DNA of 64,000 nt from Escherichia coli. Its GTDB lineage: Bacteria > Pseudomonadota > Gammaproteobacteria > Enterobacterales > Enterobacteriaceae. Under the pieces are notes generated by a model. The model ran no database searches. It saw nothing but the letters and a program-made list of their open reading frames with translations, and was not told the DNA's origin. Positions 213 through 5,810 of this stretch are shown piece by piece. The position numbers and the translations under genes are program-made. The DNA lies in NCBI RefSeq assembly GCF_003334335.1, contig NZ_QOWQ01000021.1. The stretch is one strand, 5' to 3'. Each line of letters starts with the position of its first letter. Within the stretch, counting starts at the first letter, position 1.

Positions 213-2132
213 TCAATCAGCAGCGTATATGTCGCCGCCTTTGATATGCCTGTCAGTTGCAGTTTGTCCGCCGCCCCTGATGCCGGAGATTTCACCAGTG
301 TGAACGGCGTCCCCCCGTTTCTCATCCAGTACCGGCGTCACCTGAATGCTGTTGTTTCCGGCAAACTCAAAAGCCAGTGTGTGCCATCCGTTATCAAAGA
401 CCCCGAACGTATCCAGCTTCGCATTCGGCTTCTTGTGGTACATCGCGTTCAGGTTCGTCGCATCCGTCTGCAGGAAGAAGGACATCAGCATGTCGTTGCC
501 TTCCTCTGCCAGCGTCACTCCCTCCGGCAGGGACGACAACTGCCAGTAAATGCCCAGGGCAAACCGATTCGGCACCAGTGAACCCGGCAACTTAAACCGT
601 ACGCTCACACGTCCCCCCTTCTTCAGTAACTCCACTCCCTGTCCGGCTGCATCATGCTCCAGAAACCAGATGTGGTTTTCCGGTTTATTCAGTTGCAGGG
701 CCTTACCTCCCGTAGCCCCCGCATCACTGACCACCGCTTCAGCAATGTTTTTGTTAACATTGTCTCCACTCGCCGGTTTGTGATAATAGCGCCAGCCCTG
801 TGATGCCAGGTCTTCGCCGGACGCCAGCAGACTCATCAGGGTTCGGTTACTGACCGGGGCTTCCGGCTCTCTCTCCGTACCTTCACCGGAAGGTCCGGTG
901 GGCTTCACCGTATCAGGCTGTTTTCCGGTAATGAATTCAGCGGTTCTCCCGGCATGCACAAGAATCGCCGTTGCCAGACGGTCGGAAATAATCCCACGAC
1001 GTGCCCATGATCCAAAATGCGTTTTACGGTCGGCCGTCGTCCAGGTTTTGGCGTCCGTTCGACCACCGGCTCCGTAATACCCAATATCCGCAACATCCGG
1101 ATCTTCTGACGGCTCGTTGGTACCCACATTTCGCCCGTTTTCATCCGTCATAAACGGCACAAAGAAGATTTTTTTTGCGGATTTCGTCTTGTATGCACCA
1201 TACACCGCATCGTATTGCGAAGAATAAGTCTGCTTCCAGTAGTAGGTCGTGTCGCCACAAATCCAGGGAACCGATGACGGAGAGCCCCCGAGACACTGAC
1301 CTCCGAATTCCGACAGGTCAGAACGATATTTTTCCACCATGGAATCAAACAGCCCCGGCTGAGTGGCGTATGCACCCTGTTTCAAATCAAACTCGCCCTG
1401 CATCCAGACCACTACAAGCAGAATATTTTTAGGGTTGGCCTTCAGTGCGGCCTGAGTACGGGTAAGCAGGTCCTTGTACAGTGGCTTATCTACACCCCAA
1501 CGTGCCGAGGTCTCGCTTGCGCCGGTGGATTCGCTGAAGGTACCTTCATCGCCCGCCAAAAATGCAGAACCACCACGGCAGCACGGAACCAGAAGAATAC
1601 CGGCATTCGCCGGAATAAACGGCAACAATTTCTTCGCGATATGTAATCCCTGCCCCACGCATCCATACTGAGCTGCGCTGGCTTTCGGGTGTGAAAACTT
1701 ACTCAAATCCTGAACATCATGCAGGCAGTGGTCCGCAGGAATAATGTCATTGTAGTTACAGGACGCACCACCCGGCGTGACAGTGCTGCGACGCGCCAGC
1801 TGTTTAATACGCGGGTCCGGACGGTCATATGTCTCCGGCAGCGGAAGCCCTTCACCATACGCCATGCCGTTTGACTGCCCGGCCAGCGCAATGACAAAGT
1901 AATATTCCGGTTCGCTGGTGGTGCTGATAACAGCGCCACCATCACCCGACGGTTGCACCACCACCGGTGTGGTGACATCACCTTCCGCCGCAATGGCCTG
2001 CATCAGGGTATAGGGCGTGATGGCCACCGGACTGCCAAATGGCTGCCACCCCTCCTTCAGTTTTTGTGTCAGTCGCTCCGCAAGGTCTGACGGCGACGCC
2101 GCCCTGACCACATCGTAGTGTTTAAATGTCAT
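213..2132 (-). CDS. nanS-p: Prophage sialate O-acetylesterase NanS-p family (DUF1737-like N-domain plus SGNH/SASA esterase core)
   Basis: 639-aa ORF. The N-terminus MTFKHYDVVRAASPSDLAERL and the block IALAGQSNGMAYGEG match, from memory, the esterase family found downstream of stx in Stx phages. Its position after Q and the phage tRNAs fits. Confidence 0.8.
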   Translation of the reverse strand: MTFKHYDVVRAASPSDLAERLTQKLKEGWQPFGSPVAITPYTLMQAIAAEGDVTTPVVVQPSGDGGAVISTTSEPEYYFVIALAGQSNGMAYGEGLPLPETYDRPDPRIKQLARRSTVTPGGASCNYNDIIPADHCLHDVQDLSKFSHPKASAAQYGCVGQGLHIAKKLLPFIPANAGILLVPCCRGGSAFLAGDEGTFSESTGASETSARWGVDKPLYKDLLTRTQAALKANPKNILLVVVWMQGEFDLKQGAYATQPGLFDSMVEKYRSDLSEFGGQCLGGSPSSVPWICGDTTYYWKQTYSSQYDAVYGAYKTKSAKKIFFVPFMTDENGRNVGTNEPSEDPDVADIGYYGAGGRTDAKTWTTADRKTHFGSWARRGIISDRLATAILVHAGRTAEFITGKQPDTVKPTGPSGEGTEREPEAPVSNRTLMSLLASGEDLASQGWRYYHKPASGDNVNKNIAEAVVSDAGATGGKALQLNKPENHIWFLEHDAAGQGVELLKKGGRVSVRFKLPGSLVPNRFALGIYWQLSSLPEGVTLAEEGNDMLMSFFLQTDATNLNAMYHKKPNAKLDTFGVFDNGWHTLAFEFAGNNSIQVTPVLDEKRGDAVHTGEISGIRGGGQTATDRHIKGGDIYAAD

Positions 2133-2259: not shown

Positions 2260-2314
2260 TTATGAATTCTGGTTAAAATCCATTCGATTATAAAAATGTA
2301 TATCTCATGCTGTT

Positions 2315-2371
2315 GCCCGAACCCACTCGGGCTTTTTTTTGCCCACAAGAAAGCCCCTCCGGAGAGGGGCT
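2315..2371. terminator. Back-to-back hairpins forming a bidirectional terminator module
   Basis: GCCCGA-ACCCAC-TCGGGC plus T8 on the + strand (2315-2340). AGCCCCTC-CGGA-GAGGGGCT followed by TTCTT on the minus strand (2341-2371). Confidence 0.5.
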
Positions 2372-2583
2372 AAAGCCGCGTATCTGTATCATCATGCACA
2401 TGGTGCCGGGTGCCTCCCGGTGAGTTCAGCCCGGTGCCACTAAACCCGCGTCATTCTCGTTTTGATAATCAGAGATTATACCGTCACCAGTCGCCCCTCC
2501 GCTCAGGGGGATTCACCATGCAGGATTTTTTTAACAAAATCCCTGACAGCCAGACAATCATCAACTTGCTGAATTGTGAGGTA

Positions 2584-2684: not shown

Positions 2685-2761
2685 TGGCGCGTTGTACTGG
2701 AGTCGAACCAGTGACCGATTGCTTAGAAGGCAATTGCTCTGTCCGGCTGAGCTAACAACGC
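2685..2761 (-). tRNA. argO: Phage tRNA-Arg (anticodon UCU)
   Basis: The reverse complement folds as a 77-nt cloverleaf: acceptor GCGTTGT/ACAACGC, anticodon loop CT-TCT-AA, T-loop TTCGACT, encoded CCA. Its position matches the ileZ-argN-argO cluster of Stx phages. Confidence 0.85.
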
Positions 2762-2775
2762 AGAATGCCGATAAA

Positions 2776-2852
2776 TGGACCGCCATCGAGGACTCGAACC
2801 CCGCGCAACCAGCTTCGAAGGCTGGCGCTCTATCCTGATGAGCTAATGGCGG
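2776..2852 (-). tRNA. argN: Phage tRNA-Arg (anticodon UCG)
   Basis: The reverse complement folds as a 77-nt cloverleaf: acceptor CCGCCAT/ATGGCGG, anticodon loop CT-TCG-AA, T-loop TTCGAGT, encoded CCA. Confidence 0.8.
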
Positions 2853-2859
2853 TATGTGA

Positions 2860-2931
2860 TGGTGGCCCTTGCTGGATTTGAACCAGCGACCTGGCGATTA
2901 TAACTCGCTCTCATCATTTAGCTAAAATGGC
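2860..2931 (-). pseudogene. Degenerate tRNA-Ile(CAU)-like gene (ileZ-like remnant)
   Basis: The 3' half (GGTCGCTGGTTCAAATCCAGCAAGGGCCACCA) is intact and ileX/ileZ-like. The 5' acceptor strand GCCATTT mispairs with AAGGGCC at two positions. The anticodon arm is about 4 nt short, reading GAGTTATAATCGCC. Total length is 72 nt. Confidence 0.6.
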
Positions 2932-3056
2932 TGGGGGAGTGATGATACATCAGTCACATTAAACATGAAAACAAATCGTTTTAGGTGAAATACAAAAAGA
3001 ATAGTGATTAAATATCAAATGGATATGCTTTAAATCTAACCACAGTAAAGACGAGT

Positions 3057-4001
3057 ATGATTTTTCTCAAGAATGGCGAAAGTTTTATTCGCGTGAATGA
3101 CTGGGCAGAAATTCAGGCGAGAGAGTCTTACTATCCCAAATTAGAGTTAAATGATCAGCAACTCTCTGACGTTTTTGGTTACTACGATGACCTACCAGAG
3201 GAAATTCCATGTGGAAAATCAAATTGCCGCAAAGGGCATAAAAAGGGATTTCTGGTAGTTACGAAAGAAGGATTTGAAACGAATATCGGCCATGTATGTG
3301 GAACTAATGTTTTTGGTATAGCATTTGATAATTTAGCAATAGAACTTTGCCGAAAAGCAGATTTCCATCGCTTACTTACCGCACTTAAAGAGGCAAAAGA
3401 TGATATTTTTAGCTATTACAAACTCAAAGCCAAAATCGAATCTGGGCGTCCATCACTAACTGAGGTTGCTCATAGAATACTTGACATGAAAGACCCTAAA
3501 ATCATCGGGCGTGCGGCTTATCAAACATTGAAAAAGATGGCTGCTTCTGGTGATGGGCGTGTTTTCCGCTCAAGATTAAAAAATACAGAAGAGCTAGAAC
3601 TGGACGAAATTATGTCCCAGAAGCAAACAAGCGACTCAGCTCCAAAAGTTAACAACAAAAACAAAACCGTAAATGAACTTATTGGGGTAATACAATACCC
3701 TGAATGCTTGCTGAATGATTATGACATTGCTCTTCTTTATGAAAGAGATATAAAAATGGTTCTGGAAAAATTAAACAAATGTACCCCAGATGAATTGACT
3801 GAAAGAGAGGTGTTGTCTTTTGGAATAAAGGTTTCAAGATTAAGAGAACGCTTTAACTTTGCTCAGGAACGCTTAGAAAAATCCAGGGTTTTTGCAACAA
3901 GAGAAAACCTTAAACCTTTACGTGCATTACTTAACATTCAGAAATCTGTAAGCAATAAAGACAAATTACTATTTAAGAAATTTATGGAAAATTTACCATA
4001 A
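3057..4001 (+). CDS. Hypothetical 314-aa protein with an N-terminal Cys/His knuckle; AT-rich moron antisense to the late operon
   Basis: Single long ORF in a visibly AT-rich block. Carries the motif CGKSNCRKGH...GHVCG, and the remainder is K/E-rich and helical. The stop is 2 nt before a strong hairpin. No family recognised. Confidence 0.7.
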   Translation: MIFLKNGESFIRVNDWAEIQARESYYPKLELNDQQLSDVFGYYDDLPEEIPCGKSNCRKGHKKGFLVVTKEGFETNIGHVCGTNVFGIAFDNLAIELCRKADFHRLLTALKEAKDDIFSYYKLKAKIESGRPSLTEVAHRILDMKDPKIIGRAAYQTLKKMAASGDGRVFRSRLKNTEELELDEIMSQKQTSDSAPKVNNKNKTVNELIGVIQYPECLLNDYDIALLYERDIKMVLEKLNKCTPDELTEREVLSFGIKVSRLRERFNFAQERLEKSRVFATRENLKPLRALLNIQKSVSNKDKLLFKKFMENLP

Positions 4002-4002
4002 T

Positions 4003-4028
4003 TAAAAAACCCGCTATAAAGCGGGTTC
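4003..4028. terminator. Bidirectional hairpin: tR'-like terminator for the PR' leader (minus strand) and terminator of the 314-aa ORF (plus strand)
   Basis: AACCCGC-TATAAA-GCGGGTT, with A6 on the plus-strand 5' side, which is T6 after the stem on the minus strand. Confidence 0.6.
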
Positions 4029-4068
4029 CGTGTTAATTTTTATATTGGCGCTAAACCCCATAATTAAA

Positions 4069-4098
4069 ATGATACAAGACAATTTTATGCAAAGTCAA
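4069..4098 (-). promoter_or_regulatory. PR'-like late promoter downstream of Q
   Basis: On the minus strand: TTGACT, 18 nt, TATCAT. It is located 40 nt after the Q stop and about 45 nt before the tR'-like hairpin. TTGACT and ATAAAATTG resemble lambda PR' as I recall it. Confidence 0.5.
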
Positions 4099-4137
4099 GT
4101 CGGTTGCTCAAAAATCTCTCCGCCAAAGCTGTTCAGA

Positions 4138-4953
4138 TCAGTAACTCGTTGCCTTCTCAAATTCTCTAGCCGCATGCCGCTCACCTTGATGCAGGATATC
4201 AATCAATTTTTCATAGAATGGTTTCCAATTGCGCGACCATGAAGACTGGTGCAGATCGGGAATGTATATTTGAATAGCTCGATGAACATTAGCTGATTTG
4301 ATAGATACGAATCCCTTTCCACTACAACGCTCGCAGATTTTAAACACTGGCACACCACGCTCGCTTGTGGCTTTGCGGTCCAGTACCTCTCCCTTTCCAC
4401 CACAACGACACCTGGCACTTATCACTCCCTTCCCTTTACATACATCGCAAACGACTGGTACAACTTCCGTTACCTCTGTCCATCTTTCCCAGTCTGACGG
4501 TCGAACAGCACGGGAGCGACTGGCCCAATATGGTGCTTTACCCCATGGGTATGAAACCTTACGAATGACCTGCTTACGGGGTGTTAGTCCGGTACCACTG
4601 CAACTATGGCATGTTACGCTGGTGGCCGCCGATCGGGAATACTCAGCAAAAGCAAACTGAGCCAGTACCAGCATACACCAGCCAAATTCACCACCAGCTG
4701 CTTTACGCACATTCTTCGGTGCAATTTCCATCGCGTGACGCGCCAGCGCCTGGACTGCCATCTGCTCATCAGTCTTGCTGATACCGGCCTTCCCGAAGAA
4801 GGCCGCCAGGCCAAACCGCTCACGATTACTGGTGGTACCAATAGCCGCCATAACATCGGTGCCTGTAAGACGTTCCGGAGAGGTTCCTTTCACATCGTCG
4901 CCGATATACATTCCCTGAGGACTGAAGTATTTTAGCGATGCCTCAAGCTTCAT
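4138..4953 (-). CDS. Late antiterminator Q, QuuQ/YdfT type (DnaJ-like CxxCxGxG zinc fingers)
   Basis: 271 aa. Contains MKLEASLKYFSPQ and four CxxCxGxG-type motifs (CHSCSGTG, CDVCKGKG, CRCGGKG, CERCSGKG), as in the Qin prophage Q homologue from memory. It is the last gene before PR'. Confidence 0.75.
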   Translation of the reverse strand: MKLEASLKYFSPQGMYIGDDVKGTSPERLTGTDVMAAIGTTSNRERFGLAAFFGKAGISKTDEQMAVQALARHAMEIAPKNVRKAAGGEFGWCMLVLAQFAFAEYSRSAATSVTCHSCSGTGLTPRKQVIRKVSYPWGKAPYWASRSRAVRPSDWERWTEVTEVVPVVCDVCKGKGVISARCRCGGKGEVLDRKATSERGVPVFKICERCSGKGFVSIKSANVHRAIQIYIPDLHQSSWSRNWKPFYEKLIDILHQGERHAAREFEKATSY

Positions 4954-5810
4954 TATTCACACTCCCCAACCAGATTGAGAATGACCGCTGCACCATCGTC
5001 TTCCATGCATTCACCCTTACCACTTGCCAGAAACCAGCGGCACACCTCCACGGCTTCAGCGCGTGTCACCGGTTTGATGGTTGCCAGCAATTTTTCAAGG
5101 TAGCGCTCCCGGTCATATACCGATTCGTGATGCTCAGAGTAACCAAACTCATCGCCCTGTTCTTTAGTTGCAGTGTGGCGAACACTGTAGAGCCAGTCCC
5201 AGTAAACGAACTCGCGAACAACATCAGACAGCGTATAAGGCTCAGGCAGCACATCGCGATATCCATCAACAAATGCCCGACGCTGTTCATCAATTTCGTT
5301 CATGCGGCTGCCGCCAATGCTTCCGGCTTTTTTCTCTGCCGCAGTCCAGCCCCAGAGATGATCGTTGATAAATTTCTGGGAAGACCTGATGACCCGCTCT
5401 GCTTCCACATCTTCGAGCGCTGCTTCATAGCTACCAAACGTAGCCCTGACTGATGCCGCTTTTTTGATGTTCTCCCGGGCGTTCCTGATAACCTGCGCAG
5501 GGTTATCCATGCCGATGATGCCGAACGCAACCTGGAAAGGTTCGTAACCATTCGCCAGCAGATAACGCGAATAGCGTTCCTGAGCCTCTTTTGGGGAAAT
5601 TTTAATTTTCACCAGCGCAGCCTCAGCAGCATCCAGATGTGCGGGTTCGTTCAGACGGATAACCTCCAGCACCCAAAGATAAGCATCAGTCTGCTTATGC
5701 CCGGTGATTCTCCGTTGCTCTGGCAGGGGCTTGATGTTTGCGAGGGCGGAGCTGTACGCTGCCGTCGGGATGGTGAATAGTGCTTTATGTTCGTTATTAT
5801 CAGTACGCAT
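4953..5810 (-). CDS. Hypothetical phage protein (285 aa) between primase and Q
   Basis: ORF track. Start and stop overlap both neighbours by 1 nt (translational coupling). No domain recognised. Confidence 0.7.
   Translation of the reverse strand: MRTDNNEHKALFTIPTAAYSSALANIKPLPEQRRITGHKQTDAYLWVLEVIRLNEPAHLDAAEAALVKIKISPKEAQERYSRYLLANGYEPFQVAFGIIGMDNPAQVIRNARENIKKAASVRATFGSYEAALEDVEAERVIRSSQKFINDHLWGWTAAEKKAGSIGGSRMNEIDEQRRAFVDGYRDVLPEPYTLSDVVREFVYWDWLYSVRHTATKEQGDEFGYSEHHESVYDRERYLEKLLATIKPVTRAEAVEVCRWFLASGKGECMEDDGAAVILNLVGECE

Follow-up and report, generated by a model that had tools for sequence, protein, structure and literature searches.

An antisense gene in the late leader of an Escherichia coli prophage belongs to a widespread protein family and is a candidate anti-phage factor

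Organization of the locus

The window, a stretch of 64,000 nucleotides of Escherichia coli DNA (contig NZ_QOWQ01000021.1), carries on its minus strand a prophage gene for the late antiterminator Q, followed by a promoter, an intrinsic terminator and a tRNA cluster. The interval between terminator and tRNAs is occupied by an open reading frame (ORF) on the plus strand. The features are as follows.

2685 to 2761 and 2776 to 2852, minus strand: two tRNA-Arg genes (tct and tcg), called by ARAGORN, with Rfam scores of 68 and 56 bits
2863 to 2931, minus strand: degenerate third tRNA-like element, with an Rfam score of 32.6 bits and no ARAGORN call
3000 to 3056, plus strand: upstream block conserved in alignment, with a candidate extended −10 promoter and a ribosome-binding site
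3057 to 4001, plus strand: protein-coding ORF of 314 amino acids, from the ORF list
3057 to 3326, plus strand: N-terminal beta-rich, putatively zinc-binding domain (about residues 1 to 90), delimited by column conservation
3210 to 3299, plus strand: putative zinc site C52-x4-C57-x3-H61-x19-C81, from conservation of the ligands
3327 to 3998, plus strand: C-terminal region, mostly helical with two short beta strands, from the secondary structure of the AF2 model
4006 to 4029, minus strand: tR'-like intrinsic terminator hairpin with a U6 tail, from a terminator scan and RNA folding
4069 to 4098, minus strand: PR'-like late promoter TTGACT-18-TATCAT, from a promoter scan (10 of 12 consensus positions)
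4138 to 4953, minus strand: late antiterminator Q of 271 amino acids (PF03589, E = 4.6e-51, and a PHROG match), with DnaJ-like CxxCxGxG fingers

A preliminary description of this DNA had reported an AT-rich ORF of this length, a Q gene ending at 4138, a PR'-like promoter and a tR'-like hairpin with a T6 tract, and each was recovered at its site. The GC content of the ORF is 36.5% (GC3, 30.5%), compared with 50.6% for Q, 49.2% for the window and about 50% for the flanks. Q and the ORF are convergent and 137 nt apart, with the promoter and the terminator in between, and on its other side the ORF lies head-to-head with the tRNA cluster of the late unit (2685 to 2931, minus strand). The cluster had been said to start at 2931; the two tRNA-Arg genes stand, and the third, which would mark that start, is only the weak element listed above. 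Downstream, the source genome carries lysis genes.

Promoter matches resting on the consensus alone were at chance level in the scan, with 5 found and 4.6 expected. The −35 and −10 elements of the PR'-like promoter, however, were kept in most of seven aligned related and distant loci. Moreover, the minus-strand hairpin RNA, a 10-bp stem followed by U6 (−20.6 kcal/mol; z = −2.9), was present in all seven, with its stem held by compensatory changes. Given this conservation, we conclude that the predicted promoter and hairpin are more than chance matches. The succession of a PF03589 Q, a promoter and an intrinsic terminator with late genes beyond, which characterizes a Q-dependent late unit, is likewise conserved across loci, and the unmodified PR' transcript is predicted to be about 60 nt long and to stop at the hairpin. 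Rfam matches to Trp and Phe leaders at 4001 to 4131 fell below the gathering scores and were read as a mere terminator-like hairpin.

The hairpin begins 5 nt past the ORF stop codon, and it had been proposed to double as the ORF's own terminator. That proposal is weak, as the plus-strand hairpin is followed by UUCCGUG instead of a U tract and should therefore be a poor intrinsic terminator in the direction of the ORF. Upstream of the ORF, a consensus promoter scan returned no plus-strand promoter. Alignment of loci whose proteins are just 62% identical revealed a conserved block, GTGATTAAATATCAA...TGnTTTMAATCTAACCA...AAGGG, which in the window contains a candidate extended −10 element (TG at 3026-3027 and TTTAAA at 3029-3034, plus strand). 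We infer that this block may serve as the promoter of the ORF.

Among 5426 complete E. coli genomes, 22 carry the ORF over its whole length (100% coverage), and it is intact in each of them. When compared with the allele of a Stx2e prophage, it has a dN/dS of 0.06, with 27 synonymous and 7 nonsynonymous differences. Broken copies do occur through nonsense or frameshift mutation, as in L091 (W16*), the E. coli M8 lineage (E11*) and phi467, and one of them lies in a degraded prophage. We conclude that the ORF is a real gene under strong purifying selection.

A survey of the interval in related prophages, proposed in the preliminary description, indicated that occupancy varies. The related prophage L071 lacks the gene, and elsewhere the same slot holds alternative alleles, two of which are just 25% identical to each other. 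A family member sits in the slot in 37 of 40 E. coli genomes with this Q type. The slot had also been said to carry stx in related phages; in Stx2e and Stx2f prophages stx is indeed found downstream of the ORF, but as an addition to it and not as a replacement. In prophages of STEC and EHEC, the gene has stx and nanS-p-type genes as neighbors. Deviating base composition and variable presence among relatives are the marks of a moron, and the ORF has both. Because of its low GC content, its polymorphic presence and its own conserved upstream block, the ORF looks like an acquired, moron-like accessory gene.

A large protein family with a conserved N-terminal domain

The ORF encodes a protein of 36.2 kDa with a computed pI of 8.8 and no transmembrane segments. 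The protein matched PHROG 7003 (phrog_7003) over its full length (E = 4.1e-118), with residues 1 to 313 aligned to profile positions 1 to 308 of 309. PHROG 7003, the sole hit when the protein and 127 family members were compared with Pfam, PHROGs, PADLOC and NCBIfam, carries no functional annotation, and membership explains nothing. At 50% identity (E <= 1e-3), the family resolves into no fewer than 550 clusters from Beta- and Gammaproteobacteria, and its hosts include soil and water Burkholderiales, Lysobacterales and Pseudomonas. The genome scan for the spread of the family used a subclade alignment, and a second, profile-based word-indexed search for homologues contributed almost no new members.

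The protein had initially been described as not assignable to any family, and sensitive profile and structure searches bore this out. The best Pfam match of the ORF protein had an E value of 0.12, and no Pfam family was common to 127 family members; the same 127 gave no NCBIfam match. PADLOC (2.0) returned nothing for the window protein at E <= 10 and nothing for the 127 members. When the PDB was searched by sequence profile, the whole protein retrieved just a designed repeat protein and coiled coils, and the N-terminal domain alone gave E >= 0.8. An AF2 model built from the 127-sequence alignment reached a pLDDT of 96 and a pTM of 0.86, and supersedes an earlier prediction made with 14 close sequences (pLDDT 57). 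The model had no significant fold match in the PDB by Foldseek (E >= 0.76) and none in BFVD (E >= 0.025). Searches of the literature by protein accession, PHROG identifier and topic found no paper on this gene. One family entry bears the name "Transcriptional regulator" in an automated source. Searches of the ORF protein and the 127 members detected neither a helix-turn-helix nor any other regulator domain, and a domain search of those members together with the protein properties found no nuclease, NTPase, TIR, transmembrane or other effector signature. We conclude that the family is large, widespread and stand-alone and that it matches no known family or fold in the databases searched.

Conservation by column, computed family-wide over 127 sequences, lies almost entirely within the N-terminal domain (about residues 1 to 90), and a separate 44-sequence alignment of that domain gave the same pattern. 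Residues C52, C57 and C81 are conserved in 100% of the 127 sequences and H61 in 99%; Y43, G64, G78 and G82 are also invariant, and G53, G72, N76, F86 and F90, like H61, are nearly so. The preliminary description had noted a zinc motif made of CGKSNCRKGH and GHVCG. Both elements are present, at residues 52 to 61 and 78 to 82, but they are separated by 16 residues and not 27, and the histidine of the second, H79, is variable across the wider family and is often K or N. The likely metal ligands are thus C52, C57, H61 and C81, a pattern that suggests zinc binding by an N-terminal Cys3-His domain.

The two parts of the protein differ in charge and in rate of change. Residues 1 to 100 are acidic (pI 5.3) and residues 101 to 314 are basic (pI 9.4). 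The C-terminal region evolves fast, with only E179 and N284 near-invariant.

Placement of the gene across the family

The preliminary description had set out an antisense ORF behind Q, a PR'-like promoter and a terminator, and this layout is real and recurs in many prophage lineages. The family gene was convergent with Q in 25 of 27 enterobacterial viral contigs, and the distance from the Q stop to the ORF stop was steady at 108 to 145 nt, with PR' and tR' between them, though the ORFs ranged from 22 to 100% identical. The partner at that position is not always the same Q. A relative 59% identical is paired with a nonhomologous Q (PF06323), and one 26% identical is paired with a DUF1133 gene, which has been interpreted as Q-like by HHpred (PMC8136144). 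A further member is convergent with Mor, and another is head-to-head with an Ogr/Delta-type gene. In every prophage context inspected, whether enterobacterial or Hollowayvirus, the family gene ran opposite to the phage operon beside it. Within Q, the C-terminal 57 residues (about 4138 to 4309) covary with the ORF allele, and in an identity table ORF identity followed this part better than it followed the N-terminal part.

Other members are placed differently. At nine Pseudomonas loci the family gene lies directly downstream of, and on the same strand as, a CI-like repressor with HTH_3 and Peptidase_S24 domains. Further members, one in a Klebsiella phage and one in L013, adjoin the repressor region, and some lie near lom. 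The Pseudomonas relatives, being downstream of a CI-type repressor on the same strand, independently support expression of the ORF in the lysogen. At the locus in the window, the order of PR', tR' and antisense ORF means that Q-dependent late transcription, and with it stx transcription in Stx2e and Stx2f phages, would have to cross the ORF antisense, and may thereby silence it.

Carriers of the family comprise prophages, a conjugative element and integrative islands, and several members outside prophages have defense genes as neighbors. A Type ISP restriction-modification system and AbiJ neighbor the member on the conjugative element, and TacAT toxin-antitoxin genes are found elsewhere. Other neighbors outside prophages include GajA and GajB, CBASS cyclases with 4TM and 2TM effectors, a Type I restriction enzyme and the PDC-M30B, PDC-M41B and PDC-M66B candidates; another GajB and a Type IIG restriction-modification enzyme were found in addition. 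A family tied to defense islands, in the sense of Doron et al. 2018, is one around which known defense genes are enriched in diverse genomes. By a rough count with no matched background, a known defense system lies within two genes at about 10 of some 50 nonredundant loci (about 20%), a fraction that is modest compared with classic defense-island families.

No conserved partner gene accompanies the family. A two-gene system was rejected, as no cluster of neighboring proteins appeared at more than 7 of 67 loci. A late-strand anti-gene inside the ORF was also rejected, as no overlapping late-strand ORF is conserved.

Possible functions of the ORF family

The closest analog that we find is BstA, the abortive-infection protein of prophage BTP1, which is usually encoded immediately behind the prophage repressor (Owen et al. 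2021; PMC8585504). Self-immunity to BstA comes from a cis-acting anti-BstA (aba) element. Like the ORF product, BstA is a two-domain, stand-alone single protein, about 300 amino acids long, and like the ORF family it occurs in prophages, on some plasmids and at prophage-independent sites of Gram-negative bacteria. The position of BstA behind the repressor is the layout of the Pseudomonas relatives. BstA is expressed in lysogeny and has no recognizable enzymatic domain; the ORF protein likewise has none, and its expression in lysogeny would be a further likeness. The two differ in that the N-terminal domain of BstA is KilA-N-like whereas that of the ORF protein is a Cys3-His, putatively zinc-binding domain, and in that the window ORF lies antisense after Q whereas BstA lies after cI. 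Homology was rejected. An hhalign comparison with BTP1 BstA gave a probability of 0.3%, and PADLOC model PDLC02356, which scores BTP1 BstA at 1.9e-124, matched none of the 127 family members. The PADLOC BstA model also found no match among the alleles from L070 and L004, and Pfam detected no KilA-N domain in the ORF protein or the 127 members.

Three other systems resemble the ORF in part. Morons such as stx, bor, lom and nanS-p are, like the ORF, extra cargo of deviating GC content at a transcription-unit boundary of a lambdoid prophage, and their presence differs among relatives; stx and nanS-p, however, are in the sense orientation and expressed from PR', whereas the ORF is antisense to PR'. 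The rexAB genes of lambda lie directly downstream of the repressor, as do some family members, but the ORF encodes one protein without a membrane component, in which RexB differs. Tab of Pseudomonas phage JBD26 is a prophage defense gene that runs opposite to the surrounding late operon and is expressed in lysogens from its own promoter (PMC10884400). Tab and the ORF are both embedded in a late operon on the opposite strand, but Tab lies between terminase genes and is accompanied by a late-strand anti-Tab gene (gp30), for which the ORF has no conserved overlapping counterpart.

The defense-system neighbors and the analogies with BstA, RexAB and Tab make a circumstantial case for a role in defense or exclusion. 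The reading that we favor, and consider somewhat probable, is that the ORF encodes a lysogen-expressed, stand-alone anti-phage or exclusion protein that is analogous but not homologous to BstA. The ORF would be a functional, horizontally acquired moron of a lambdoid prophage that is on in the lysogen and off once the prophage enters lytic growth. Its soluble 36-kDa product would shield the lysogen from other phages, whether through superinfection exclusion or through abortive infection, and may do so by stoichiometric binding rather than as an enzyme, in a BstA-like manner. Against this reading stand the lack of any effector signature that could account for a killing or blocking step, the negative PADLOC searches of 127 members, the modest fraction of defense neighbors and the negative plus-strand promoter scan upstream of the ORF. 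In Enterobacterales, Q-modified RNA polymerase that has passed tR' would collide with transcription of the ORF and run antisense through it; in Pseudomonas prophages, the family gene would be cotranscribed with the upstream CI repressor.

The steady spacing between ORF and Q with PR' and tR' between them, the 37 of 40 genomes of this Q type that have a member in the slot and the covariation with the Q C terminus could point instead to a role in regulating the late switch of the phage itself. Either the protein, or convergent transcription that enters PR' and Q through the weak plus-strand terminator, would hold the late genes, and with them the stx genes of Stx2e and Stx2f phages, silent during lysogeny or tune the timing of lysis, akin to lambda's antisense control of Q. 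That family members adjoin other late activators, namely, Mor, the PF06323 and DUF1133 genes and, head-to-head, the Ogr/Delta type, fits the same idea. Nonetheless, the relatives that pair with nonhomologous Q types make Q itself an improbable target, many members are located well away from late activators (behind CI, near lom, on the conjugative element and in islands by Gabija or CBASS), and the covariation would be expected anyway from linkage and a recombination breakpoint inside Q. We therefore regard a late-switch regulator as unlikely. We also give little weight to a factor for lysogenic conversion or host modulation that has nothing to do with defense, for example, a nucleic acid-binding regulator that alters physiology, fitness or virulence. 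The moron-like position, the low GC content, the automated name, the company of stx and nanS-p-type genes in STEC and EHEC prophages and a basic helical region with the potential to bind nucleic acid would suit such a factor, but the search for regulator domains was negative and the neighbors are mobile-element and defense genes rather than metabolic or virulence operons. Moreover, a host- or virulence-specific role is unlikely for a family that reaches soil and water Burkholderiales, Lysobacterales and Pseudomonas.

Carriage by prophages, a conjugative element and integrative islands, sometimes beside restriction-modification, Gabija or CBASS, is also what one might see if the protein inhibited a host defense system or blocked rival plasmids or satellites to the benefit of its carrier element. 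Such counter-defense or competition is quite improbable, as expression predicted to be on in lysogeny and off in lytic growth is the reverse of what a phage needs from an anti-defense gene, and a basic 36-kDa protein does not resemble typical anti-restriction proteins, which are small acidic DNA mimics. A spurious ORF or decaying relic without function, to which the occasional nonsense and frameshift copies might point, is in practice refuted by the conservation data: the low dN/dS, the intact copies in complete E. coli genomes, the hundreds of clusters with invariant cysteines and a near-invariant histidine and the fold predicted with high confidence.

Whatever its function, the family is a well-defined target, with a high-confidence model, a site of three invariant cysteines and a near-invariant histidine, reproducible placements and natural null alleles available for comparison. 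In Shiga toxin phages the late promoter is separated from stx2e or stx2f by the gene, whose transcription could affect toxin and late-gene expression. If the ORF encodes a defense factor, it would represent a new single-gene system with hundreds of family members across Proteobacteria, mechanistically opaque in that a zinc domain is joined to a variable helical region and neither bears the signature of an enzyme. A broader proposal, which we hold to be possible but doubtful, is that the family is a widespread form of single-protein anti-phage immunity with an undescribed zinc-domain fold that is confined to lysogeny by gene placement alone. Placement would act either through cotranscription with CI or through an antisense position in the late leader, where Q read-through shuts the gene off and self-immunity is achieved by transcriptional interference; as part of the same proposal, the convergent unit between PR' and stx of Stx2e and Stx2f phages could also damp basal toxin expression. 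A defense function would make the family a clean case of self-immunity set by the place of a gene in the prophage transcription map.

The ORF and the flanking late switch

The ORF and the late antiterminator gene Q are convergent in the window, and the 137 nt separating their stop codons hold a PR'-like promoter site and a tR'-like hairpin.

Features of the ORF locus
3057-4001, plus strand: ORF, 314 aa, ATG start (ORF list)
4138-4953, minus strand: Q antiterminator, 271 aa, DnaJ-like CxxCxGxG fingers (Pfam PF03589, E = 4.6e-51; phrog_127)
4098-4069, minus strand: PR'-like, sigma-70-like site TTGACT-18-TATCAT (promoter scan)
4029-4006, minus strand: tR'-like hairpin, 10-bp GC-rich stem followed by six U, -20.6 kcal/mol (terminator scan, RNA fold)
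2863-2931, minus strand: third tRNA-like element (Rfam, 32.6 bits only; no ARAGORN call)
2341-2550, minus strand: sRNA STnc100 (strong Rfam match, 158.7 bits)
2285-2337, plus strand: prophage sRNA AsxR (Rfam, 63 bits, exactly the gathering score)
213-2132, minus strand: nanS-p-type prophage esterase, 639 aa (DUF1737, SASA esterase and DUF6645 domains)
4953-5810, minus strand: 285-aa ORF directly upstream of Q, sharing base 4953 with it; without a Pfam family

The promoter scan found 5 sigma-70-like matches of PR' quality in the region versus 4.6 expected, which is chance level. Despite that count, the site at 4098-4069 and the hairpin at 4029-4006 were accepted as the putative PR'/tR' pair on the strength of an alignment of seven loci, related and distant: most of them preserve the -35 and -10 elements, and compensatory changes in the stem maintain the hairpin in every one. 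The location of the ORF, its convergence with Q, the promoter and the hairpin are thus as the preliminary description had placed them, and the ORF is indeed AT-rich (36.5% GC; Q has 50.6% and the window as a whole 49.2%). The same description had the hairpin serve as the ORF's own terminator, but on the plus strand the sequence after the hairpin is UUCCGUG, so that it would terminate ORF transcripts poorly. In composition and polymorphism the ORF has the character of a moron, an independent accessory transcription unit; a promoter and terminator of its own are unproven candidates.

On the late strand downstream of PR'/tR' are two tRNA-Arg genes and a third tRNA-like element, and in the source genome the esterase gene and a lysis cassette come after this cluster. 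The cluster reported to start at 2931 was therefore recovered as to its two tRNA-Arg genes, with the third member marginal. The third copy looks degenerate, given its weak Rfam score, the lack of an ARAGORN call and an annotated tRNA-Ile at the equivalent position in a related prophage (L071). The esterase gene is the first late gene past the tRNAs, and the STnc100 and AsxR matches sit in between; the Rfam score for AgvB beside them is below threshold. The 285-aa ORF, variously annotated as hypothetical or HTH containing, is conserved in all related prophages examined.

An undescribed family with a conserved N-terminal domain

A scan of 5426 complete E. coli genomes recovered the full-length ORF DNA from 22, and the exact protein occurs on hundreds of contigs, named "hypothetical" every time. 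Neither the ORF protein nor any of 127 relatives matched Pfam, NCBIfam or PADLOC, and PDB sequence profiles returned nothing for the whole protein or the N-terminal domain alone. The sole family match was PHROG 7003, which has no annotated function, and a literature search by accessions and PHROG identifier found no mention of either. The prophage protein BstA was tried as a possible family for the ORF protein and rejected. We conclude that the protein lies outside every described family or fold among those searched, in line with the preliminary description, which could assign it to no family.

A profile search over 1.84 billion representative proteins defined a family of 550 clusters (50% identity) at E <= 1e-3 and 292 at E <= 1e-10, most of them about 300 aa long and matching end to end. 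In a 127-sequence alignment, seven positions never vary (Y43, C52, C57, G64, G78, C81 and G82), and H61 is conserved at 99%. Nearly all conservation falls within residues 1 to 90, and the C-terminal two thirds has just two notable positions, E179 and N284. The Cys-His motif had been described with a 27-residue gap between its halves, which is actually 16 residues, and H79 of its GHVCG half is unconserved in the family. An AlphaFold2 model built from the same alignment was confident (pLDDT 96, pTM 0.86) and predicts that the Cys and His residues sit in a beta-rich N-terminal domain, after which the chain forms long helices and two short strands. The computed properties are those of a soluble, basic protein (pI 8.8) without a transmembrane segment, in which the N-terminal domain is acidic and the C-terminal region basic. 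No enzymatic or membrane signature was found.

Compared with a 96.4%-identical allele from an Stx2e prophage, the ORF has 27 synonymous and 7 nonsynonymous differences (dN/dS = 0.06), and the conservation data rule out a nonfunctional ORF. Null alleles do occur: an IMG/VR copy of the window-type allele (L091, 4001-4945, plus strand; 95% identical) is intact except for a premature stop, W16*; and two copies of the 25%-identical Stx2f-prophage allele (see below) are also broken, one by E11* in mouse E. coli of the M8 lineage (L069), where the prophage is degraded, and the other by a frameshift in phi467 (L005). Four other mouse-derived strains match at the same 99.2% identity as the M8 copy, at the DNA level.

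Genomic placement of the family

In prophages, enterobacterial copies at 47 to 100% identity occupy the interval from the late activator to the lysis genes, on the opposite strand. This antisense slot is occupied in E. coli prophages, those encoding Stx2e included, and in three further lineages whose replication and lysis modules differ. A PF03589 Q follows convergently in 25 of 27 enterobacterial IMG/VR loci, with stop-to-stop gaps of 108 to 145 nt where measured. The proposed survey of the Q-to-tRNA interval in related prophages found the slot filled in 37 of the 40 E. coli genomes carrying the window Q type, a figure reached because a 25%-identical allele, that of Stx2f prophages, occurs there in 15 E. 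coli genomes; in one such prophage (L070, 3779-4699, plus strand) it lies antisense between Q and stxA2f. The slot is also kept with other partners: the Ewingella copy adjoins a PF06323 Q, nonhomologous to PF03589 Q; copies of about 22% identity pair with a Q of about 40% identity; a DUF1133 Q-like gene is the partner of a 26%-identical copy; another is convergent with a Mor activator; and in one lineage the gene is head-to-head with an Ogr/Delta-type gene. At L110, the gene just before a family member, on the same strand, encodes a 216-aa protein (3287-3937, plus strand) that has two CxxCxGxG motifs but matches nothing in Pfam; this is possibly a divergent Q-like protein whose arrangement is different.

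Elsewhere in prophages, the gene has the early-left operon on one side and the repressor on the other (a Klebsiella phage and another prophage), is found near lom at a prophage end, or sits among early genes on the opposite strand (Pseudomonas Hollowayvirus phages). At nine Pseudomonas loci from genomes and viral contigs (L061, L062, L065, L066, L068, L119, L120, L122 and L125) it comes immediately after an HTH_3 and Peptidase_S24 (CI/LexA-like) repressor gene and is read in the same direction. Pseudomonas agarici LMG 2112 has four copies on four contigs (L064 to L067), and their shared flanking small genes suggest a repeated element or several related prophages. Outside prophages, a genome scan yielded 50 loci, distributed over Burkholderiales, Lysobacterales, Pseudomonas and a Pectobacterium plasmid, with integrases, resolvases and repressors within two genes. 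Recognized defense systems lie equally close at about 10 of about 50 loci by our rough count, namely, GajA and GajB (Gabija), CBASS cyclases with 4TM or 2TM effectors, type I, IIG and ISP restriction-modification enzymes, AbiJ, TacAT toxin-antitoxin genes and PADLOC candidate systems. No neighbor family recurred in more than 7 of 67 loci, and therefore the gene stands alone.

Proposed expression and function

The recurrence of two placements, behind a CI repressor and antisense in the late unit, points to a gene that would be on in the lysogen and off upon induction. We infer from the gene architecture that the hairpin would end unmodified PR' transcripts at about 60 nt, leaving the convergent ORF undisturbed, and that Q-modified polymerase would cross about 0.95 kb of antisense ORF to reach the tRNAs, nanS-p and lysis genes, and also stx in Stx2e and Stx2f phages. 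Such read-through would silence the ORF by collision and antisense pairing. Both placements have precedents. In lambda, rexAB lies behind the CI repressor, and RexAB resembles the family in placement only. Tab of JBD26 is antisense inside a late transcription unit (PMC10884400), again a likeness of placement only. The closest analogue is BstA, whose gene lies behind a prophage repressor (PMC8585504), a layout shared by the nine Pseudomonas loci above.

The main alternative is that the ORF acts in the phage's own late switch, as the constant ORF-Q geometry and the weakness of the terminator in the ORF direction would allow. ORF identity agrees more closely with that of the final 57 residues of Q than with that of the remainder: Q is mosaic with a breakpoint near 4310, 18 E. 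coli genomes match only its N-terminal ~214 codons (4310-4953), and in these the last 57 codons (4138-4309, minus strand) differ and co-vary with the adjacent ORF allele. Linkage, from which it is expected anyway, could explain the co-variation, as could a specificity module that ties Q to its promoter. Against Q as the target, close relatives have nonhomologous activators as partners, and many members lack a nearby activator. Host modulation and counter-defense are less probable roles, given how the family is distributed and oriented.

Protection of the lysogen from other phages is the most likely function, on circumstantial evidence: the gene stands alone, is carried by several kinds of mobile element, undergoes allele replacement in a fixed slot and has defense systems nearby. 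The earlier interpretation is supported for architecture and accessory-gene status, but only circumstantially for function. Because enzymatic and membrane signatures are lacking, a binding mechanism is favored; we speculate that, as in BstA, the conserved putative zinc domain would bind a partner that is itself conserved (nucleic acid or core host machinery), and the variable basic helical region would supply specificity or nucleic-acid contact. The ORF would belong to a known kind of gene, the prophage-borne accessory or defense gene expressed in the lysogen; it departs from that kind in its protein family and fold, both undescribed, and in its antisense position after a late activator, which is conserved to an unusual degree. 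The family is well defined, widespread, uncharacterized and directly testable, and the position of the ORF upstream of stx2e and stx2f gives it added relevance.
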